A DNA stretch of 13,764 nucleotides. Origin: a virus (taxonomy: Duplodnaviria > Heunggongvirae > Uroviricota > Caudoviricetes). Each line of letters opens with the position of its first letter. The stretch's first letter is position 1. The stretch lies in the IMG/VR virus record IMGVR_UViG_2541047849_000006; one strand, written 5' to 3'. Both the position numbers and the translations under genes were made by a program. The notes below the pieces were generated by a model. That model was not told the origin of the DNA and did no database searches. It was given only the letters and a program-made list of their open reading frames with translations. Below, one piece after another: positions 1 through 13,764 of this stretch.

Positions 1-276
1 GTGGCTTCTGTTTCTATCAGCTGTCCCTCCTGTTCAGCTACTGACGGGGTGGTGCGTAACGGCAAAAGCACCGCCGGACATCAGCGCTATCTCTGCTCTC
101 ACTGCCGTAAAACATGGCAACTGCAGTTCACTTACACCGCTTCTCAACCCGGTACGCACCAGAAAATCATTGATATGGCCATGAATGGCGTTGGATGCCG
201 GGCAACTGCCCGCATTATGGGCGTTGGCCTCAACACGATTTTACGTCACTTAAAAAACTCAGGCCGCAGTCGGTAA
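1..276 (+). CDS. insA: IS1 transposase subunit InsA (91 aa)
   Basis: Protein [43 protein letters not shown]... recognised as IS1 InsA (zinc-finger/HTH protein). The first codon in the window is GTG. Confidence 0.9.
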
Positions 277-698
277 CCTCGCGCATACAGCCGGGCAGTG
301 ACGTCATCGTCTGCGCGGAAATGGACGAACAGTGGGGCTATGTCGGGGCTAAATCGCGCCAGCGCTGGCTGTTTTACGCGTATGACAGGCTCCGGAAGAC
401 GGTTGTTGCGCACGTATTCGGTGAACGCACTATGGCGACGCTGGGGCGTCTTATGAGCCTGCTGTCACCCTTTGACGTGGTGATATGGATGACGGATGGC
501 TGGCCGCTGTATGAATCCCGCCTGAAGGGAAAGCTGCACGTAATCAGCAAGCGATATACGCAGCGAATTGAGCGGCATAACCTGAATCTGAGGCAGCACC
601 TGGCACGGCTGGGACGGAAGTCGCTGTCGTTCTCAAAATCGGTGGAGCTGCATGACAAAGTCATCGGGCATTATCTGAACATAAAACACTATCAATAA
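195..698 (+). CDS. insB: IS1 InsB reading frame (167 aa), normally expressed as an InsAB' fusion by -1 frameshifting
   Basis: Protein ...[50 protein letters not shown]... recognised as IS1 InsB. It overlaps insA in the -1 frame, with the A6C slippery motif at 253-259. Confidence 0.88.
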
Positions 699-2355: not shown

Positions 2356-2607
2356 TTATTCTCCTGAAAAAGCAGAAAAGCCAGCTTTTATTCCGATCTC
2401 TTTCAATGCCTGTAATGAAGTGACAAACTCACCTTCGCGCAAGATAAATCCGTCCGTGACCCGAGCATCCACAAAATTAATTAACGCAGCCCCATTCTTT
2501 CGCAAACACATAATGCGGTAATGACTAACAAGATTTCCATTTTCAACGCACACAGCATAGAGGCCATCTTCACAAAAAATTTTACGCAGTTCTTCGATGT
2601 TCATCAT
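2356..2607 (-). CDS. rem: Small prophage protein Rem (83 aa), function unknown
   Basis: 83-aa ORF between ydfU and hokD, matching the K-12 Qin gene order (ydfU-rem-hokD-relE-relB) and Rem length as recalled. Confidence 0.65.
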   Translation of the reverse strand: MMNIEELRKIFCEDGLYAVCVENGNLVSHYRIMCLRKNGAALINFVDARVTDGFILREGEFVTSLQALKEIGIKAGFSAFSGE

Positions 2608-2823: not shown

Positions 2824-2979
2824 TTACTCCTCAGGTTCGTAAGCTGTGAAGACAGCGACCTCCGTCTGGCCGGTTCGGATTCGTACCTCGCAGAGGTCTT
2901 TCCTCGTTACCAGTGCCGTCACTATGACGGTTAAACAGATGACGATCAGGGCGATTAACATCGCCTTTTGCTGCTTCAT
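2824..2979 (-). CDS. hokD: Hok-family type I membrane toxin (51 aa), not in the supplied ORF track
   Basis: Manual minus-strand translation gives MKQQKAMLIALIVICLTVIVTALVTRKDLCEVRIRTGQTEVAVFTAYEPEE, a Hok/Gef-family protein (single TM helix plus the conserved LCE.R..G..EVA.F motif). SD 'aggag' upstream; lies directly after relE, as hokD (relF) does. Confidence 0.85.
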   Translation of the reverse strand: MKQQKAMLIALIVICLTVIVTALVTRKDLCEVRIRTGQTEVAVFTAYEPEE

Positions 2980-4799: not shown

Positions 4800-6260
4800 C
4801 CCGAAAATGAACACCAGAAACGCGACTTAAGAATCTACCCTATGAATGGATATGCACTCAACCGAATCGATCTTGGTTTCAATCTTTTTTATCGGGATCA
4901 GGCTTCTTTTTAGGTAACTTCGGGGGCTTAACTTGCTGATGACTTTGCGTTCGGCGCGTAAGCCAGGGATGGTCAGCTTTAGGTTTAACATAGTATTTTG
5001 AGCGTAAATCAATACGGGCATTATCCACTCGTTCATGGACACTCTTTTCATCATCCAGTGGTATAGGCTCCGGGCCATCAACATACTTTTCCCAGCCCAG
5101 CGCTTTCCCGTCATACAGAACGTTAATTTCACCGTCAAAGTTCTCGCATACAGTAACAACCGAATGCCTAAGTCGATATCCCCGGCCCTCACTGCGTACC
5201 TGAAACGCACTGCTTTTGTACTGGAAAGTGAGATTTTTAGACAGAACGCGCTTCGCCTGTAGGCTGAAGATATAACCCAGTTCCTCTTCAGAATGGTGCA
5301 CATCAAGATGAGCATTATCAGTAGTACGAGGCGACGTAGCGAACCGGTTGTTATAGGCTTCAATAAAGGTCGGCAACCATGCATTTGCTGTTTCAATATC
5401 ACTGATATTCTGAAGCCGCATTTCTTTGACCAGCCTGTCCTGTAGTGTCTGATTGGCGCGCTCTACCCGCCCTTTTGCCTGCGGGCTGTTGGCATGGATT
5501 GGCTCGATGCCCAGTGTCTTTATCGCACGAGTGAACTGGGTCAGCTCACCTTCCCGCTCTGGGTTATTTACCCTGAATATACTGTGTCTATCAGAGTAGA
5601 GAGCGAGCGGTACGCCATGATCATTAAGGTAACCCCGGAGGGTTTCCATGTAAGCCCGGGTTGTTTCAGCAGGCACAAAACGCAACGCCATCAACGCACT
5701 GGTGGCATCATCAATGAAAACGATCAGTGTACATCTGGGGCCTCGATTTTCAAACCAGTCATGAGGTGAGCCATCAATCTGGATCAGTTCACCGTAAGAT
5801 GGTCGTCGCATGCGGCGTTGATATATACGGGCAATTTTACGACGGCGTTCACGCCATAACCCCTCTTCTATCATCCACTTTCTGAGAGTTTCAACGGATA
5901 AAGATAAACCGTGTATCTCGCGCAATTTTTCGCACGCAAACGTAGGTCCAAAATCAGCGTAACGGCCTTTGAGGAGTGAAATTACTGTTGCTCTGAATTC
6001 AGTAGAAAAGGAATTATTAGGACGCTTTCCACGTCGGTGGGAAACCAGACCAGAAGGCCCTTCATTTCTATACCGTTGCACCAGACGTTTAACCTGCCGA
6101 ATAGAAATGCCAATGCGTGCCGCAGCTTGTTCCTGAATAATCTGAAGTCGGTGGAGTTCCTTATGACTCATCGTAACAGTCTCTTTGATCATGAAAAATC
6201 CCCCAGAGAATTGTCTGGGGACATTTTAGAATGGTTCAAAGGGGACATTACAGCTTGGTG
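4800..6260 (-). mobile_element. Insertion sequence carrying a single DDE/rve transposase gene; ends are approximate and terminal inverted repeats were not resolved
   Basis: A 437-aa transposase ORF with short flanks, sitting where K-12 Qin (as recalled) has no such gene. The boundaries are a guess from the ORF limits; I could not identify the IRs or a target-site duplication by eye. Confidence 0.35.
4879..6192 (-). CDS. DDE-type transposase with an N-terminal HTH and an rve (integrase-core) catalytic domain, IS481/ISNCY-like (437 aa)
   Basis: N-terminal HTH-like segment (..IGISIRQVKRLVQRY..); candidate catalytic residues in 'IQIDGSPHDWFE', 'LALYSDRHSIF' and 'ANSPQAKGRVERANQTLQDRL' (D, D, E with a downstream basic residue); basic C-terminal tail. 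SD 'ggggga' 8 nt upstream of the ATG at 6192. Confidence 0.85.
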   Translation of the reverse strand: MIKETVTMSHKELHRLQIIQEQAAARIGISIRQVKRLVQRYRNEGPSGLVSHRRGKRPNNSFSTEFRATVISLLKGRYADFGPTFACEKLREIHGLSLSVETLRKWMIEEGLWRERRRKIARIYQRRMRRPSYGELIQIDGSPHDWFENRGPRCTLIVFIDDATSALMALRFVPAETTRAYMETLRGYLNDHGVPLALYSDRHSIFRVNNPEREGELTQFTRAIKTLGIEPIHANSPQAKGRVERANQTLQDRLVKEMRLQNISDIETANAWLPTFIEAYNNRFATSPRTTDNAHLDVHHSEEELGYIFSLQAKRVLSKNLTFQYKSSAFQVRSEGRGYRLRHSVVTVCENFDGEINVLYDGKALGWEKYVDGPEPIPLDDEKSVHERVDNARIDLRSKYYVKPKADHPWLTRRTQSHQQVKPPKLPKKKPDPDKKD

Positions 6261-6526
6261 TTAACAATAGCCTGCTTCTCCGTGCCTTTCGGCACGTAAG
6301 AGGCTAACCTACATGTGTCTAGCATGAAATTGGCCTCAGATTAATGTTAAGCGTCTTGCAGGACGCGTAATGTTAACTGGGGCTTTTCTCTATCTGCCGT
6401 TGGTGTCCATGCCCGAGGCAGATAGCCTCAAGCACCCGCAGTCATTCTACTTAACTAAGATTTCCCCGCAAACCGTTTTTGTCCAGCACAGTAAATATCC
6501 AACTAAACCAATGGAGTTCGCTGTAT

Positions 6527-8674: not shown

Positions 8675-9202
8675 TTATCCTCTGAAACCAGGCGGAATTT
8701 CTGTATCCGGTTCAGAAATATGATTAACACAACGCTGTACAGGTGAACGTCCCAGGCGGATGACCAGTTCGTCCCATTTTTCGCGGAGCTTTGACGGGCT
8801 CATGATGTTTTTTACCCAGAATGGATCTCGCTGAACCCGACCAAACATTTCGCAAATTTGTCTGTGGCTTCTGCCATCCAGCATCCGCATTGTGCGCACG
8901 TCATTGGCCCAGGCAGTCCAGTTAGCCTCCATAATTGCAGGCACTAGCGCCGTGAACTTTTCACGCTTATCCCTGGTGTCGATAGCCTTCCAGCGTTCAA
9001 ATATCTTCACTCGATTAACGCCAAGCGCTCGCTGATCAATCGCGCCACCTTCATATGTGACACGCTGAACATCGATGTTCGGGCGCTCTTTCAAAGCCCA
9101 GAATGCTTCAGTGATTAATATCGTCGCCTGCTCCTGTGTCATTCCTGGTCGACATATCCAGGCATCCAGAGCCTCACGAGCCTGTTCAGGAGTGATTTTC
9201 AT
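8675..9202 (-). CDS. Hypothetical prophage early protein (175 aa), first gene downstream of dicC
   Basis: ATG start at 9202, overlapping the dicC 3' end by 17 nt. Product MKITPEQAREALDAWICRPGMTQEQATILITEAFWALKERPNIDV... not recognised. It occupies the position of the first post-Cro gene in lambdoid early-right operons. Confidence 0.6.
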   Translation of the reverse strand: MKITPEQAREALDAWICRPGMTQEQATILITEAFWALKERPNIDVQRVTYEGGAIDQRALGVNRVKIFERWKAIDTRDKREKFTALVPAIMEANWTAWANDVRTMRMLDGRSHRQICEMFGRVQRDPFWVKNIMSPSKLREKWDELVIRLGRSPVQRCVNHISEPDTEIPPGFRG

Positions 9203-9416
9203 TGTTCAACCGCCCCGCCCGCTTCGTCTTACGATATTCATCATAAACTTTGGGATCATACTGAAGCTCCCCGCCAGATGCCTCCTGTAGACGCATCGCG
9301 CGACCTTCGGGAACTAAATCCCCTTTCCAGCTATAAAGCGAAGCCAAACGAATACCTGCTGCTTGTGCAAGTTTTGTTTTTGAACCGAAATACAAAAGAG
9401 CGTCAGTTTTAAGCAT
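9186..9416 (-). CDS. dicC: DicC, Cro-like regulator of the Qin immunity region (76 aa)
   Basis: Protein MLKTDALLYFGSKTKLAQAAGIRLASLYSWKGDLVPEGRAMRLQEASGGELQYDPKVYDEYRKTKRAGRLNNENHS recognised as DicC; divergent from dicA; SD 'aaggtg' upstream. Confidence 0.85.
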   Translation of the reverse strand: MLKTDALLYFGSKTKLAQAAGIRLASLYSWKGDLVPEGRAMRLQEASGGELQYDPKVYDEYRKTKRAGRLNNENHS

Positions 9417-9430
9417 TTAAAACACCTTTA

Positions 9431-9450
9431 TTGTTAGTCATAACTAACAA
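9431..9450. promoter_or_regulatory. Operator-like 20-bp near-palindrome in the dicC/dicA intergenic region
   Basis: 'ttgttagtcataactaacaa', with half-sites TTAGT / ACTAA and one central mismatch. It overlaps the predicted dicC -10 and transcript start. Confidence 0.6.
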
Positions 9451-9477
9451 GATAGATGTTAACAAAAACATAGTCAA
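9449..9477 (-). promoter_or_regulatory. Candidate sigma-70 promoter of dicC
   Basis: Minus strand -35 'ttgact' (9477..9472), 17-nt spacer, -10 'tatctt' (9454..9449). Confidence 0.5.
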
Positions 9478-9483
9478 TACGAT

Positions 9484-9497
9484 TTAGCATTAGCTAA
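9484..9497. promoter_or_regulatory. Second operator-like site abutting the dicA start codon
   Basis: 'ttagcattagctaa': inverted half-sites TTAGC / GCTAA, ending 3 nt before the dicA ATG. dicA has no recognisable SD, so the transcript may be leaderless. Confidence 0.4.
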
Positions 9498-9499
9498 CT

Positions 9500-9907
9500 A
9501 TGGAAACAAAAAATTTAACTATCGGCGAACGCATCAGGTATCGTCGGAAAAACCTCAAACACACCCAAAGGTCTCTTGCTAAAGCCCTGAAAATCTCCCA
9601 TGTGTCTGTATCACAATGGGAACGGGGTGATAGTGAACCTACAGGGAAGAACCTTTTTGCCCTCAGCAAAGTATTGCAATGCTCACCAACATGGATTCTA
9701 TTTGGCGATGAAGACAAGCAACCAACACCACCTGTTGAGAAGCCAGTTGCCTTATCCCCCAAAGAACTAGAGCTCCTTGAGCTGTTTAATGCACTGCCAG
9801 AATCAGAACAGGATACCCAGCTCGCCGAAATGCGAGCTCGAGTAAAAAACTTCAATAAACTCTTTGAAGAATTACTAAAAGCCCGTCAGCGGACAAATAA
9901 AAGATAA
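9500..9907 (+). CDS. dicA: DicA, CI/C2-like HTH repressor (135 aa)
   Basis: Protein METKNLTIGERIRYRRKNLKHTQRSLAKALKISHVSVSQWERGDSEPTGKNLFALSKVLQCSPTWILFGDEDK... recognised as DicA (Xre-type HTH). Confidence 0.9.
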   Translation: METKNLTIGERIRYRRKNLKHTQRSLAKALKISHVSVSQWERGDSEPTGKNLFALSKVLQCSPTWILFGDEDKQPTPPVEKPVALSPKELELLELFNALPESEQDTQLAEMRARVKNFNKLFEELLKARQRTNKR

Positions 9908-9967
9908 CATCATCAATGAGTTATCTTTTACCACATCAATTATGTTAGCTATAGCATACAAAATCAC

Positions 9968-9996
9968 TTGACCGATATGTTAGTCATGACTAATCT
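9968..9996 (+). promoter_or_regulatory. Candidate promoter with an embedded perfect 14-bp palindromic operator (OL-like) upstream of the large exonuclease-domain ORF
   Basis: -35 'ttgacc' (9968-9973), 17-nt spacer, -10 'taatct' (9991-9996). The perfect palindrome 'ttagtcatgactaa' (9980-9993) has the same TTAGT/ACTAA half-sites as the dicC/dicA operator. Confidence 0.55.
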
Positions 9997-10079
9997 TGTT
10001 TGCATCAACACACCGCACGGTGTTCTCAGCAAACAGTTCCGCTATGGTTATTAGCGCACAGGAATTGTTGCAGGAAGAC

Positions 10080-12125
10080 ATGGCAACATTCGACGGACAT
10101 ATCGTTGAAGCGTTGATGAAAATGCCAGAAGTTAACGCCATGTATCCGGAGCTTAAGTTGCACGCCATTGGGTGGGTTAAGCATAAATGTATTCCTGGTG
10201 CTAAATGGCCCGAAATTCAGGCAGAGATGCGCATCTGGAAAAAACGTCGCGAAGGTGAACGCAAGGAAACCGGAAAATACACGTCTGTTGTTGATCTCGC
10301 CCGCGCCAGAGCCAATCAACAGTACACTGAAAATTCAACAGGAAAAATCAGCCCGGTCATTGCTGCCATTCATCGCGAATACAAGCAGACATGGAAAACA
10401 CTGGATGACGAACTGGCCTACGCTCTCTGGCCTAGTGATGTGGATGCCGGAAACATTGACGGCAGCATCCATCGCTGGGCAAAAAAAGAAGTTATCGACA
10501 ACGACCGCGAAGACTGGAAGCGTATCTCGGCATCAATGCGCAAACAGCCTGATGCCCTTCGCTACGACCGCCAAACTATTTTTGGCCTTGTCCGTGAGCG
10601 TCCGATCGACATTCACAAAGATCCCGTAGCACTGAACAAATATATCTGCGAATACCTGACGACAAAGGGCGTGTTTGAGAATGAAGAAACAGACCTGGGC
10701 ACTGTTGATGTTCTCCAGTCATCAGAAACACAAACTGATGCAGTGGAAACTGAGGTATCTGATATCCCAAAAAATGAAACCGCGCCGGAAGCTGAACCAT
10801 CTGTAGAGCGTGAGGGGCCGTTCTATTTCCTCTTCGCAGATAAGGACGGAGAAAAATACGGTCGCGCAAACAAACTCTCTGGTCTGGATAAGGCACTGGC
10901 TGCTGGCGCCACTGAAATCACAAAAGAAGAATATTTTGCCCGAAAAAATGGCACATACACGGGCTTACCGCAAAATGTAGATACCGCTGAAGATTCAGAA
11001 CAACCAGAGCCGATAAAAGTTACCGCTGACGAAGTAAACAAAATTATGCAGGCAGCCAATATCAGCCAGCCTGACGCCGATAAGTTGCTTGCTGCATCAC
11101 GTGGTGAATTTGTTGAAGGGATTAGTGACCCGAATGATCCGAAATGGGTTAAGGGGCTCCAGACCCGCGATTCTGTGAACCAGAACCAGCATGAATCGGA
11201 ACGGAACTACCAAAAAGCGGAACAAAACAGTCCAAATGCGTTACAAAACGAGCCAGAAACGAAACAGCCTGAACCAGTAGCGCAACAGGAAGTGGAAAAA
11301 GTCTGCACCGCCTGCGGTCAGACCGGCGGCGGCAACTGCCATGATTGTGGCGCGGTGATGGGCGACGCAACATACCAAGAAACATTCGATGAAGAGTATC
11401 AGGTTGAAGTTCAGGAAGATGATCCGGAGGAAATGGAAGGCGCTGAACATCCACACAAGGAGAACACTGGCGGCAATCAGCATCACAATAGCGATAATGA
11501 AACTGGCGAGACGGCAGATCACCCAATTAAGGTGAACGGTCATCACGAAATCACATCCACCAGCAGGACGTGTGACCATCTAATGATCGACCTTGAAACC
11601 ATGGGAAAAAATCCTGATGCCCCGATCATCTCAATAGGTGCAATATTTTTCGATCCGCAAACCGGAGATATGGGACCGGAATTTAGTAAGACTATCGATC
11701 TGGAAACTGCTGGCGGAGTCATTGATCGGGACACCATTAAATGGTGGCTTAAGCAATCACGCGAAGCGCAATCTGCCATTATGACCGATGAAATCCCGTT
11801 AGATGATGCACTGTTACAATTGCGAGAATTTATCGACGAAAACTCCGGTGAATTTTTTGTTCAGGTTTGGGGAAATGGAGCCAACTTCGACAACACGATT
11901 TTGCGCCGTTCATACGAACGGCAGGGGATCCCCTGCCCGTGGCGTTACTACAACGATCGCGATGTACGCACAATCGTTGAGCTGGGGAAAGCCATAGACT
12001 TCGATGCCAGAACGGCTATTCCATTCGAAGGTGAGCGCCATAATGCACTTGATGACGCCCGTTACCAGGCAAAATACGTTTCAGTTATCTGGCAAAAACT
12101 GATCCCGAGTCAGGCTGATTCTTAA
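10080..12125 (+). CDS. Large early-left protein: unknown N-terminal domain, acidic low-complexity linker, CxxC..CxxC zinc ribbon, and a C-terminal DnaQ-like (DEDDh) 3'-5' exonuclease domain
   Basis: The track ORF (9996..12125, 709 aa) starts at TTG; the ATG at 10080 with SD 'aggaag' gives 681 aa. Zinc ribbon 'CTACGQTGGGNCHDCG' at ~11304-11352. Exo motifs 'MIDLETMG' (D/E at 11589-11597), 'WGNGANFDNTIL' (D at 11889) and 'HNALDDARY' (H at 12039) place the exonuclease domain at ~11570-12100. Confidence 0.8.
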   Translation: MATFDGHIVEALMKMPEVNAMYPELKLHAIGWVKHKCIPGAKWPEIQAEMRIWKKRREGERKETGKYTSVVDLARARANQQYTENSTGKISPVIAAIHREYKQTWKTLDDELAYALWPSDVDAGNIDGSIHRWAKKEVIDNDREDWKRISASMRKQPDALRYDRQTIFGLVRERPIDIHKDPVALNKYICEYLTTKGVFENEETDLGTVDVLQSSETQTDAVETEVSDIPKNETAPEAEPSVEREGPFYFLFADKDGEKYGRANKLSGLDKALAAGATEITKEEYFARKNGTYTGLPQNVDTAEDSEQPEPIKVTADEVNKIMQAANISQPDADKLLAASRGEFVEGISDPNDPKWVKGLQTRDSVNQNQHESERNYQKAEQNSPNALQNEPETKQPEPVAQQEVEKVCTACGQTGGGNCHDCGAVMGDATYQETFDEEYQVEVQEDDPEEMEGAEHPHKENTGGNQHHNSDNETGETADHPIKVNGHHEITSTSRTCDHLMIDLETMGKNPDAPIISIGAIFFDPQTGDMGPEFSKTIDLETAGGVIDRDTIKWWLKQSREAQSAIMTDEIPLDDALLQLREFIDENSGEFFVQVWGNGANFDNTILRRSYERQGIPCPWRYYNDRDVRTIVELGKAIDFDARTAIPFEGERHNALDDARYQAKYVSVIWQKLIPSQADS

Positions 12126-12136
12126 TGTTCAACTGT

Positions 12137-12168
12137 CGCCGGTTGTGACTGGTATTCTGCAACCGGCG
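12137..12168 (+). other. Perfect 9-bp inverted repeat (hairpin) between the exonuclease-domain gene and xis
   Basis: 'cgccggttg' (12137-12145), 14-nt loop, 'caaccggcg' (12160-12168). No T-tract follows, so it is not a canonical intrinsic terminator. Confidence 0.4.
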
Positions 12169-12197
12169 CTCGTCTGATGTAAGAGATAAAGAAATCG

Positions 12198-12449
12198 ATG
12201 AGCGAAGTAATCATGATTGTCTCTCCCGGCAAATGGGTATCCGAAGAGCAGTTAATTGCGCTGAAAGGAATAAAAAAAGGTACGTTAAAAAAGGCCCGGG
12301 AAAAATCGTTTATGGAAGGAAGGGAATATAAGCATGTCGCTCATGACGGTATGCCATGGGATAACAGTCCATGCTTTTACAACCTGGAAGAAATTGATCG
12401 CTGGATTGAGCGCCAGGCATCAGCGAGACCAAGACGTCATCTTACTTGA
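12198..12449 (+). CDS. xis: Excisionase (lambda Xis-like, 83 aa)
   Basis: Small basic protein immediately upstream of the integrase; '..EGREYKHV..' resembles the lambda Xis '..DGREYLFHE..' motif. The start is not certain (alternative ATG at 12213). Confidence 0.65.
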   Translation: MSEVIMIVSPGKWVSEEQLIALKGIKKGTLKKAREKSFMEGREYKHVAHDGMPWDNSPCFYNLEEIDRWIERQASARPRRHLT

Positions 12450-12483
12450 CTAAAAGCCACACTAACTAATGAGAGAAGTTGAA

Positions 12484-13764
12484 ATGAAATATCCGACAGG
12501 CGTGGAAAACCATGGAGGGAAATTACGTATCTGGTTTGTTTATAAAGACGTAAGAGTCAGGGAAAATCTGGGGGTTCCTGACACAGCAAAAAACAGGCGC
12601 GTTGCAGGTGAACTACGCTCCTCTGTTTGTTACGCAATAAAAACTGGTGTTTTCGACTATGCAAAACAGTTTCCCTCCTCACGCAATCTGGAAAAATTTG
12701 GTGAGGCCCGACAAGATTTAACCATAAAAGAACTGGCTGAAAAATTTCTGGCACTGAAAGAAACTGAAGTCGCAAAAACATCACTCAACACATACCGTGC
12801 CGTCATCAAAAATATCCTGAGCATAATCGGTGAAAAAAATCTTGCCTCATCGATTAATAAAGAAAAATTACTGGAGGTTCGTAAAGAGTTACTGACTGGA
12901 TACCAGATCCCCAAAAGTAACTATATTGTTACACAACCAGGGAGATCGGCTGTAACTGTAATTAATTACATGACAAATCTTAACGCCGTGTTCCAGTTTG
13001 GTGTTGATAACGGTTACCTGGCAGATAATCCGTTTAAGGGGATCTCGCCATTAAAGGAATCAAGAACCATTCCGGATCCTCTTTCGCGGGAAGAATTTAT
13101 CCGTCTTATCGATGCGTGCAGAAATCAGCAAGCAAAAAATTTATGGTGTGTTTCTGTTTATACTGGCGTTCGCCCTGGTGAGCTGTGTGCACTTGGATGG
13201 GAGGACATAGATCTGAAAAATGGAACAATGATGATCAGGAGAAATTTAGCAAAAGACCGTTTCACGGTACCAAAAACACAGGCGGGAACCAATCGGGTCA
13301 TTCATCTTATTAAGCCAGCAATCGACGCTCTCCGGAGTCAGATGACATTAACGAGACTGAGCAAAGAGCATATCATTGATGTTCACCTCAGAGAGTATGG
13401 CAGAACAGAAAAACAAAAATGCACCTTTGTTTTTCAACCTGAAGTGTCAGCGAGAGTAAAAAATTATGGTGACCATTTTACCGTTGACTCAATAAGGCAG
13501 ATGTGGGACGCAGCGATAAAACGTGCCGGACTCCGCCATCGAAAATCATATCAGTCGAGACATACTTATGCCTGCTGGTCGCTGACAGCTGGTGCTAACC
13601 CGGCATTTATAGCAAACCAGATGGGCCATGCAGATGCGCAAATGGTATTTCAGGTATACGGAAAATGGATGTCTGAAAACAATAATGCACAGGTAGCTTT
13701 GTTAAATACACAGTTAAGCGAGTTTGCCCCAACCATGCCCCATAACGAAGCAATGAAAAATTAA
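12484..13764 (+). CDS. int: Tyrosine recombinase / phage integrase (lambda Int family)
   Basis: C-terminal catalytic signature '..RHRKSYQSRHTYACWSLTAGANPAFIANQMGHADAQMVFQVYGKW' (R, H-x-x-R-H, nucleophile Y). Probable start at MKYPTG (12484, SD 'gagaag'); the track ORF starts at 12469. The stop codon is the last triplet of the window. Confidence 0.9.
   Translation: MKYPTGVENHGGKLRIWFVYKDVRVRENLGVPDTAKNRRVAGELRSSVCYAIKTGVFDYAKQFPSSRNLEKFGEARQDLTIKELAEKFLALKETEVAKTSLNTYRAVIKNILSIIGEKNLASSINKEKLLEVRKELLTGYQIPKSNYIVTQPGRSAVTVINYMTNLNAVFQFGVDNGYLADNPFKGISPLKESRTIPDPLSREEFIRLIDACRNQQAKNLWCVSVYTGVRPGELCALGWEDIDLKNGTMMIRRNLAKDRFTVPKTQAGTNRVIHLIKPAIDALRSQMTLTRLSKEHIIDVHLREYGRTEKQKCTFVFQPEVSARVKNYGDHFTVDSIRQMWDAAIKRAGLRHRKSYQSRHTYACWSLTAGANPAFIANQMGHADAQMVFQVYGKWMSENNNAQVALLNTQLSEFAPTMPHNEAMKN

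Follow-up and report, generated by a model that had tools for sequence, protein, structure and literature searches.

Three related palindromes around a dicA-type repressor gene raise the question of whether this prophage carries the OR/OL arrangement of a CI/Cro-type switch, and whether DicA represses through it a large exonuclease-domain gene together with xis and int. An earlier note, made from the sequence by itself, had proposed both. We analyzed the whole stretch of DNA in which the palindromes lie (hereafter the window), 13,764 nucleotides of the Caudoviricetes record IMGVR_UViG_2541047849_000006. All three strings are where the note had placed them: ttgttagtcataactaacaa at 9431–9450 (site 1), ttagcattagctaa at 9484–9497 (site 2) and ttagtcatgactaa at 9980–9993 (site 3).

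On DNA identity, which is 99.7–100% between window 9150–10044 and Qin of K-12-type strains, the immunity region in the window is that of the Escherichia coli Qin lambdoid prophage. It is a deletion derivative of that locus and not a different system. The dicA-dicC-dicBp immunity locus of K-12 Qin reportedly goes back to Bejar et al. 1986/1988. Later work on it in K-12 is that of Yun et al. 2012 (PMC3441716) and Ragunathan et al. 2023 (PMC10448788). For K-12 Qin, publications already cover the operator Oc, repression of the PL-like promoter dicBp by DicA, a bistable logic like that of CI/Cro and the leaderless transcript of dicA, so that a CI/Cro-type switch with OR-like and OL-like control regions had been correctly recognized in the window but was not new. 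Taken as a whole, we are confident in reading the locus as the Qin DicA/DicC switch, with Oc on one side of dicA, OL1 and OL2 at dicBp on the other, and a deletion beyond.

The operator motif and the region between dicC and dicA

The note had described a recurring half-site, TTAGT/ACTAA. A TTAG...CTAA core is indeed shared, but the conserved half-site is TGTTAG and not TTAGT, and at sequence level we define the operator as the 18-bp form TGTTAG-yyATrr-CTAACA. With at most one mismatch, TTAGTN4ACTAA occurs in the window at 9434 and 9980 only (0.30 expected; two matches reached in 6 of 200 shuffles). With at most two mismatches, TGTTAGN6CTAACA occurs at 9432 (none), 9943 (two) and 9978 (two) and nowhere else in the 13.8 kb, against an expectation of 0.44 and with three matches reached in 2 of 200 shuffles. 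Because these counts exceed those of the shuffles, sites 1 and 3 are non-random; the proposal of three related operators holds for these two and is weaker for site 2, a chance-level match.

For footprinting we used 80 IMG/VR loci found with DicA, which are 93–100% identical. Across 50 distinct sequence variants there is no change in TGTTAG, in the AT at the center or in CTAA; variation is confined to the flanks and four central positions. The four central positions are hypervariable, by transitions only, with 9–14 forms among near-identical loci; by analogy with phage 434, this could reflect selection tuning repressor affinity through non-contacted bases. The sample is informative for Oc, OL1 and OL2 and of no use for site 2, where conservation tells little because the whole block 9455–9499 is almost invariant. 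In five other lineages the half-site at OL follows the one at OR: PPompW (CCTTAG), mEp460 (ATTGAG), Klebsiella phi1.2 (CCTTAG), BUCT708 (TGTTAG) and P22. Recognition-helix residues set against half-sites yielded no simple code. We did not count phiES15 towards the co-variation, as its automated palindrome pick is an AT-rich false palindrome. Read by eye, the phiES15 OL is CTAAC-TTTT-GTTAG.

Site 1 had been taken for an operator over the dicC promoter, and it is one: the 9431–9450 string TTGTTAGTCATAACTAACAA is the published DicA operator Oc, the OR1 analogue, letter for letter over its 20 bp (PMC3441716), with the core 18-mer TGTTAGTCATAACTAACA at 9432–9449. Its TGTTAG, AT and CTAACA are unchanged in all 50 variants. 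DicA binds Oc in vivo and in crude-extract EMSA, and a single A-to-C change abolishes binding (PMC3441716); the toxicity caused by Oc titration has been independently reproduced. The gene that Oc controls, dicC (9186–9416, minus strand), is the Cro analogue (Pfam P22_Cro, E = 1.7e-11; annotated as dicC in H1 and H13). Its promoter, the PR analogue, lies on the minus strand at 9449–9477, with a −35 TTGACT (9477–9472), a 17-nt spacer and a −10 TATCTT (9454–9449); it was found by promoter scan and is collinear with P22 PR. Transcription of dicC probably starts at about 9442 on the minus strand, judging from the position annotated for the DicA site, −8 to +12 of dicCp, and from a 5'RACE statement (PMC3441716). 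A DicA dimer at 9432–9449 covers −8 to +12 of this promoter, shuts off DicC and stimulates DicA's own leaderless transcript.

The other two OR positions are weaker. The OR sites begin at 9432, 9457 and 9482, a P22-like spacing, but Oc is the only strong match. Om, the site at the OR2 position (9457–9474, TGTTAACAAAAACATAGT), matches well in its left half only, and is 25 bp away from both Oc and Oa, compared with 23 and 25 bp for OR1-OR2-OR3 of P22. This half-degenerate site had been overlooked in the earlier note. Oa, the OR3 analogue (9482–9499, ATTTAGCATTAGCTAACT), includes site 2, runs across the dicA −10 and start site and abuts the dicA ATG; by position it is homologous to P22 OR3, ATTTAAGATGACTTAACT, which likewise abuts the c2 ATG. 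We assigned the names Om and Oa by position and P22 homology and not from the original figure. Oa has three mismatches to the 18-mer consensus, a level equalled at five unrelated places in the window (9 matches compared with 5.1 expected). [quoted passage not shown] The tripartite OR model is only partly realized because of this lack of binding, and on both counts we do not uphold site 2, equated with Oa by position, as a DicA operator. Oa does retain TTAG...CTAA, a core in agreement with the motif from DicC ChIP-seq. Most likely DicC, or DicA in excess, switches dicA off at this site, and of the two it more likely serves DicC.

DicA itself (9500–9907, plus strand) is a 135-aa HTH repressor, an analogue of CI and C2 without the peptidase domain. 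It scores 234.3 bits with NCBIfam NF007257, 'transcriptional repressor DicA' (cut-off 101), HTH_3 is its only Pfam domain, and its RefSeq accession WP_000448564.1 is common to the matching strain and a K-12 derivative. The dicA core promoter, the PRM analogue (9485–9497, plus strand), has the −10 TAGCAT at 9485–9490, unchanged in 50 of 50 variants, and a start that would fall at A9496 or A9497. There is no Shine-Dalgarno sequence upstream of the ATG at 9500 and the leader would be 3–4 nt long, in line with the note's suggestion of a leaderless mRNA. In K-12, dicA is one of five leaderless mRNAs mapped, with a start 3 nt before the ATG by dRNA-seq (Table S3) and confirmation by RLM-RT-PCR (PMC4681348). 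In the P22 annotation the RM transcript has its 5' nucleotide 4 nt before the c2 ATG, inside the shared TAACTATG. An A-tract/U-tract hairpin (9898–9930, plus strand) spans the dicA stop and is terminator-like, standing between dicA and dicBp; its predicted RNA fold has −11.4 kcal/mol (z = −6.9), none of 200 shuffles was as stable, and relatives have hairpins at the same place. According to the literature, dicA is essential in K-12.

The dicBp promoter and the genes beyond the deletion

A promoter-like element had been noticed around site 3. It is real, and it is dicBp, the published PL-like promoter repressed by DicA (9968–9996, plus strand), with a −35 TTGACC (9968–9973), a 17-nt spacer and a −10 TAATCT (9991–9996). 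We placed it by alignment to the annotated P22 PL instead of by generic scan; the scan missed it because the −10 matches at only 3 of 6 positions. It is collinear with P22 PL (TTGACC-17-TAAATT, start 35 nt from the beginning of the −35) and with six other relatives. The −35 is unchanged in 50 of 50 variants and the −10 takes the forms TAATCT and TAATAT. Homology to P22 and lambda would put the start at about 10003–10004. Between 9908 and 10044 the window differs from K-12-type Qin by one substitution. In K-12, dicBp is derepressed 22-fold in a dicA deletion, drives a polycistronic operon transcript and is RecA-independent, with no induction by mitomycin C (PMC10448788). Repression of dicBp is relieved there by the antirepressor Rem (PMC10448788), whose gene is present in the window as an 83-aa ORF (2356–2607, minus strand) annotated 'rem: protein Rem' in a 100%-identical locus (L090).

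The OL1-type operator (9978–9995, TGTTAGTCATGACTAATC) includes site 3 and occupies the dicBp spacer and −10. It has two mismatches to the consensus; TGTTAG, AT and CTAA are unchanged in 50 of 50 variants, and its center takes 14 forms. The equivalent site in relatives has that phage's own OR half-site. The perfect 14-bp palindrome described at site 3 is exact, but the perfection is incidental: the window has A9989 where K-12 has G, at a non-conserved position of the OL1 center, and this strain-specific center, present in 3 of the 50 variants, is what makes the palindrome perfect. The OL2-type operator (9943–9960, TGTTAGCTATAGCATACA) stands just upstream of the dicBp −35, has two mismatches and is one of only three such matches in the window, with TGTTA, AT and CA.ACA conserved; it is 35 bp from OL1, the OL2-OL1 distance of P22. 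OL2, a stronger site than site 2, had gone unnoticed in the earlier note. DicA at OL1 would sit in the dicBp spacer and −10, probably aided by OL2, and would exclude RNA polymerase from the promoter. DicC ChIP-seq has peaks on both sides of dicA, one of them on the OL1 side, with the motif TT(A/C/T)G...C(G/A/T)AA. As to a footprint or ChIP peak of DicA at dicBp (OL1, OL2), the searchable literature has only this DicC ChIP-seq and mention of an unpublished DicA data set, and one paper lists the DicA binding location at dicB as 'unknown / low-evidence' in the database of the time. We searched the conserved dicBp leader for an RNA element and found no Rfam family at the gathering threshold and 0 compensatory pairs among six sequences.

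Downstream of the leader the window departs from K-12. BLAST against K-12-type Qin (L002) aligns window 8917–10044 with L002 4768–5895 and window 10043–13048 with L002 7884–10895, so that L002 5896–7883 is gone, and with it the dicBF operon (ydfABC-dicF-dicB-ydfD), its toxic cell-division and lysis genes included; by Rfam, DicF is found in L002 and not in the window. This 1,988-bp deletion, with its junction at 10043–10044 in a 2-bp microhomology (TA), removed ydfA, ydfB, ydfC, dicF, dicB, ydfD and exonuclease codons 1–130, cut the dicBp leader at +40 and joined dicBp to codon 131. Of 5,426 complete E. coli genomes, 3 have the junction and 5,423 lack it; FORC_082, B-JRPT-4119 and O15_8X are strains that bear it.

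The large exonuclease ORF, which the note had placed under the operator as a native gene, is in fact a truncated pseudogene fused to the dicBp leader by the deletion. The remnant (10044–12125, plus strand) has 693 codons, the 3' 84% of an 825-aa exonuclease gene, and starts at Met131, an internal codon of the native gene. It retains the whole C-terminal 3'-5' exonuclease domain (Pfam Rv2179c-like, residues 512–683, E = 1.8e-67; residues 644–815 of the intact protein), and RefSeq annotates the remnant as a pseudogene, 'incomplete; missing N-terminus'. The first 16 codons of the large ORF, from TTG 9996 to 10043, are promoter and leader sequence. We considered whether the deletion had created the ATG at 10044 and rejected this, as the intact gene already has that ATG as its Met131 codon. 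A further in-frame ATG stands at 10080, after AGGAAG.

Two intact genes follow: xis (12198–12449, plus strand), annotated as excisionase (Pfam DUF1233, putative excisionase, E = 1.6e-31), and int (12469–13764, plus strand), a site-specific integrase whose complete ORF runs to the window end (annotated at L001 13335–14615). RefSeq puts the int start at window 12484. It is plausible from the sequence that DicA also controls xis and int, since we found no convincing terminator in between. In the intact locus dicBp drives ydfABC-dicF-dicB-ydfD-exonuclease-xis-int, and derepression in the present locus (by Rem, heat, urea or spontaneous switching) would transcribe the truncated leader, the exonuclease remnant, xis and int only.

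Competing explanations and what the locus adds

Three other explanations were weighed against the Qin reading. We give practically no credence to the palindromes being chance features of AT-rich intergenic DNA with no common binding protein. Site 2 alone would fit, being indistinguishable from five random three-mismatch matches, but site 1, OL1 and OL2 exceed the shuffles and are footprinted across the 50 variants, OR and OL co-vary in five other lineages and site 1 is experimentally validated (PMC3441716), so that chance is already refuted for sites 1 and 3. Very unlikely, too, is the model taken literally, with three equivalent DicA operators of which the third natively controls an intact exonuclease-xis-int operon. 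The core common to all three sites, the position of site 3 in a genuine promoter immediately before the ORF and the exonuclease domain retained in that ORF speak for it. Yet the ORF is the distal 84% of the 825-aa gene with leader sequence for its 5' end, the junction is missing from 5,423 of the 5,426 genomes, site 2 is at chance level with Oa, its positional equivalent, reported unbound by DicA in vivo, and the stronger fourth site at 9943–9960 is left out.

The remaining explanation is that the remnant, xis and int are expressed only by read-through of dicA transcription, the 9980–9993 palindrome not acting as a promoter in this strain. The downstream genes do lie on the strand of dicA, only 136 nt from it, the dicBp −10 is weak, and the hairpin behind dicA is rich in A and U and may be leaky. 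If xis and int were read through from a gene expressed in the repressed state, they would, however, be constitutive, which to our knowledge no lambdoid prophage shows. The −35 TTGACC does not vary, the layout is that of P22 PL, and between dicA and dicBp stands a significant hairpin with a U tract. The otherwise identical promoter fragment of K-12, with a single base changed in the operator center, drives lacZ, with derepression of 22- to 165-fold (PMC10448788). We consider exclusive read-through highly improbable, and retain the Qin switch with dicBp as its probable downstream promoter.

As a discovery the locus carries little weight, given that the parts of the switch are published for E. 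coli K-12 Qin. What is added is the operator at sequence level, TGTTAG-yyATrr-CTAACA, together with explicit coordinates for OL1 and OL2; a comparison showing that the specificity of OR and that of OL change together across DicA-type phages; and a natural deletion in which the toxic dicBF genes are gone and the switch, xis and int are kept. The deletion strain could serve as a natural control for why dicA is essential. A more speculative reading, which we consider rather unlikely, is that this rare deletion lineage runs a DicA/DicC/Rem switch without the toxic cargo (DicB, DicF, YdfD), gating only the exonuclease remnant and the intact xis-int, or that the central operator positions tune affinity. 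If the switch is cargo-free in this way, dicA would be dispensable here and the switch would purely control prophage excision.

Comparison with Qin of K-12, P22 and lambda

The cryptic prophage Qin (Kim) of K-12 has the same dicC, dicA, Oc, Om, Oa and dicBp promoter-operator, 99.7–100% identical up to window 10044. In the MG1655 literature ydfE, insD7 and intQ are pseudogenes, whereas xis and int are intact in the window; a second, private deletion in the window fuses YdaT-like and O-like genes.

With P22 immC the locus shares the divergent repressor and cro genes, and the N-terminal 63 residues of DicA are approximately 59% identical to P22 C2 (also PMC3441716). In both, a TTGACC-17-TAAnnT promoter has OL1 in its spacer and −10, OL2 stands 35 bp upstream of OL1, and the repressor transcript starts 3–4 nt before the ATG within TAACTATG; the OR sites are spaced 25/25 bp in Qin and 23/25 bp in P22. 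The half-site is TGTTAG in Qin compared with (A)TTAAG in P22, and only Oc is strong among the Qin OR sites, unlike in P22. P22 has OL1–3, whereas no third OL site is recognizable in Qin, where 9930–9942 is hypervariable, and in contrast to P22 no N-type antiterminator gene follows the PL analogue in the window. DicA also lacks the C-terminal LexA/S24-type cleavage domain (135 aa compared with 216 aa for P22 C2), and its inactivation comes about through heat, urea or the antirepressor Rem and not, as in P22-type repressors, through RecA (PMC10448788).

The operators of lambda have no detectable sequence relationship to those of Qin, and DicA, which is not known to bind cooperatively or to loop OL to OR, is short and without autocleavage. 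The logic is nevertheless that of lambda, with a bistable repressor/anti-repressor pair in which the repressor activates its own leaderless mRNA and represses the PR and PL analogues, as DicA does. The switch works like CI/Cro, but its repressor is of the short, antirepressor-controlled class.

The Qin immunity region and its published switch

Positions 9150-10150 are 99.7-100% identical to the Qin prophage in thousands of E. coli genomes. RefSeq annotation gives a YdaT-family gene, dicC (9186-9416, minus strand; product in Pfam P22_Cro), dicA (9500-9907), a [quoted passage not shown] downstream of dicA, xis (excisionase, 12198-12449) and int (integrase, 12469-13764). DicA scores 234 bits against the NCBIfam model 'transcriptional repressor DicA' (cut-off 101). 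The earlier note proposed an OR/OL arrangement and a leaderless dicA mRNA; both readings are correct, but they are already established for Qin (PMC3441716 and PMC10448788 for the former, PMC4681348 for the latter).

Window 9431-9450 is, letter for letter, the 5'-TTGTTAGTCATAACTAACAA cloned as operator Oc by Yun et al. 2012 (PMC3441716). With this operator, both the repression in vivo and the band shift obtained with crude extract depended on DicA, and binding was lost upon a single A-to-C change. At Oc, DicA acts as a repressor of dicC and an activator of dicA; Om and Oa, sequence-predicted operators of the same region, showed no DicA binding in vivo (data not shown), and no dicA promoter consensus was visible (PMC3441716). 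In a Reg-Seq follow-up, which reproduced the titration toxicity of this site, the annotated DicA site spans -8 to +12 of dicCp, which puts the start of dicC transcription at minus-strand position 9442. Deleting dicA derepresses the PL analogue dicBp, upstream of ydfA, 22-fold, and the antirepressor Rem does so 165-fold; the promoter is not induced by SOS and yields a polycistronic transcript spanning ydfABC-dicF-dicB-ydfDE; operator-like sequences were remarked on in both intergenic regions (Ragunathan et al. 2023, PMC10448788). Romero et al. 2014 (PMC4681348) count dicA among just five mRNAs of E. coli K-12 whose leader is <10 nt; its start, checked by RLM-RT-PCR, is 3 nt upstream of the ATG. 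The sole literature gap met is in an earlier Reg-Seq paper, for which the place of DicA binding at dicB was unknown or low-evidence.

The rem gene (2356-2607, minus strand) is intact, so the known induction route is available. Elsewhere, an IS1 transposase fragment (195-698, plus strand; NCBIfam transpos_IS1, E 1.8e-42) breaks up ydfT, the Q-like antiterminator gene of Qin, and homology to intact ydfT-ydfU-rem loci starts at about 713. A full-length match to the sok antitoxin RNA (6266-6437, minus strand; Rfam RF01794, 104 bits against a gathering score of 59) lies 3.3 kb away from the annotated hokD (2824-2979, minus strand) and adjoins an ISNCY-family transposase gene (4879-6192, minus strand).

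Operator sites and the DicA motif

The three palindromes that the earlier note took for related operators (9431-9450, 9484-9497 and 9980-9993) occur exactly as quoted; the outer two are real, but the middle one is weak. Across the 13.8-kb window, TTAGT-N4-ACTAA with at most one mismatch has just two matches, at 9434 and 9980 (0.30 expected; two matches reached in 6 of 200 shuffles), and misses 9484-9497, whose inner sequence differs.

To define the footprint, 80 DicA loci from IMG/VR and annotated loci were reduced to 50 distinct sequences spanning 9380-10044. In Oc, TGTTAG, the central AT and CTAACA are unchanged in all 50, and the four positions in between show nine forms, transitions only. 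The third site, extended to 9978-9995 (OL1), keeps TGTTAG, AT and CTAA invariant around a centre with 14 forms; its 'perfect' 14-bp palindrome is due to a TCATGA centre present in 3 of the 50 sequences, the K-12 centre being TCATGG. Variability is much higher in the flanks (9417-9431, 9908-9942 and 9961-9977). The invariant arms and AT with variable centres thus define the operator as TGTTAG-yyATrr-CTAACA, which at two mismatches or fewer has exactly three matches in the window, at 9432 (0 mismatches), 9943 (2) and 9978 (2), compared with 0.44 expected and 2 of 200 shuffles reaching three. The operator at 9943-9960 (OL2) was absent from the earlier list. The middle site, as the 18-mer 9482-9499 (ATTTAGCATTAGCTAACT), has three mismatches, as do five unrelated places, a level at which the window holds 9 matches vs 5.1 expected.

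The operator centres (9438-9439, 9442-9443, 9984-9985 and 9988-9989; transitions only) are far more variable than the surrounding arms although DicA is at least 93% identical across the 50 sequences. Affinity tuning via bases that are not contacted may account for this, as may frequent recombination between Qin-like prophages.

In the repressed state, DicA on Oc blocks dicCp and stimulates leaderless dicA, as the cited work shows; DicA on OL1, possibly together with OL2, would occlude dicBp. Motif, footprint and covariation suggest that the repression shown for dicBp involves DicA contact with its operators. Oa, equated by position and P22 homology with 9482-9499, would be mainly a DicC (Cro-like) shut-off site for dicA, since it overlaps the dicA core promoter and retains only the TTAG...CTAA core, which matches the DicC motif.

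A rare deletion in front of the large ORF

The earlier note also placed the large exonuclease-domain ORF, with xis and int, under DicA control. An operator does lie directly in front of this ORF, but as the by-product of a rare deletion that truncates the gene. Alignment to the K-12-type Qin locus of strain DH5alpha (L002) and to phage PhiR42_1 equates window 8917-10044 with L002 4768-5895 and window 10043-13048 with L002 7884-10895. The 1,988 bp absent from the window comprise ydfA, ydfB, ydfC, dicF, dicB, ydfD and nt 1-390 of the 825-aa exonuclease gene; DicF has an Rfam match in L002 and none in the window. The junction, CAGTTCCGCTA|TGGTTATT, has 2-bp microhomology, and the ATG at 10044 is native, being codon Met131 in the intact gene, so the 709-aa ORF called mechanically from TTG 9996 opens with 16 codons of promoter/leader sequence. 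The C-terminal Rv2179c-like exonuclease domain is kept. Among 5,426 complete E. coli genomes, this junction occurs in only 3, and hence the operator fronts the large ORF only in a rare deletion derivative, in which derepression would yield no DicB, DicF or YdfD.

Read-through from dicA would be an alternative, though unlikely, source of the downstream transcript. A significant hairpin with an A-tract/U-tract at 9898-9930 (-11.4 kcal/mol, z -6.9) spans the dicA stop codon and could be a bidirectional terminator between dicA and dicBp, which argues against simple read-through. In mEp460, Klebsiella phi1.2, phiES15 and P22, too, a hairpin of this kind comes after the repressor gene. From 9990 to the end of int we found no convincing plus-strand terminator, so transcription from dicBp plausibly runs into xis and int.

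Compared with K-12-type Qin, a second deletion, at 8917-8929, removes about 927 bp (L002 3841-4767) and fuses codons 1-93 of the YdaT-family gene with the C-terminal portion of the O-like replication gene into a chimeric ORF of 175 aa (8675-9202, minus strand). Its junction was found in 0 of 5,426 complete E. coli genomes, including the three sharing the dicBp deletion.

Relatives and phage P22

Full-length DicA-type repressors with 52-63% identity occur in PPompW, mEp460, Klebsiella phage ST405-OXA48phi1.2, Cronobacter phiES15 and Stenotrophomonas phage BUCT708. Over the cro-side promoter, each phage has its own perfect palindrome (CCTTAG-N6-CTAAGG, ATTGAG-N4-CTCAAT, CCTTAG-N6-CTAAGG, TGTTAG-N6-CTAACA), whose next-best matches within the respective 5.4-kb locus map to the OR region and to a place 36-110 bp downstream of the repressor gene. 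When the eight loci are aligned by their -35, all have one operator just upstream of a TTGAC-type -35, then a 17-nt spacer with a second operator, whose right arm is overlapped by a TAAnnT -10. By this homology, dicBp has its -35 at 9968-9973 (TTGACC), its -10 at 9991-9996 (TAATCT) and a predicted start near 10003-10004.

The BUCT708 repressor is 60-62% identical to E. coli DicA, and its locus has TGTTAG-N6-CTAACA at both OR and OL (2421-2438, 2917-2934 and 2951-2968). For such an enterobacterial-type immunity module the host record is unexpected, the phage being reported from Stenotrophomonas. The transcribed leader after dicBp (10004-10044, L002 5855-5925; ACACCGCACGGTGTTCTCAGCAAACAGTTCCGCTACCCCAGCGTTAAGGGG) is near-identical across the differing immunity specificities of Qin, PPompW and mEp460 and recognisable in the Klebsiella, Cronobacter and Stenotrophomonas relatives. 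Two small hairpins lie within this leader, which has no Rfam family and no compensatory changes among six sequences and is possibly a nut- or put-like element. It is severed after GCTA by the deletion.

P22 C2 has only its N-terminal domain in common with DicA, and the curated P22 annotation names the elements of the shared layout OL2, OL1 and PL. OL2 and OL1 lie 35 bp apart in P22 as in Qin, and the OR spacings are 23/25 bp in P22 vs 25/25 bp in Qin. In P22, the position annotated as 'RM transcript 5' nt' precedes the c2 ATG by 4 nt and falls within TAACTATG, an octamer also found in Qin, in agreement with the published dicA start. By analogy, the dicA -10 would then be TAGCAT (9485-9490). 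Both this -10 and the start lie within 9484-9497, which makes this site the positional equivalent of P22 OR3, ATTTAAGATGACTTAACT.
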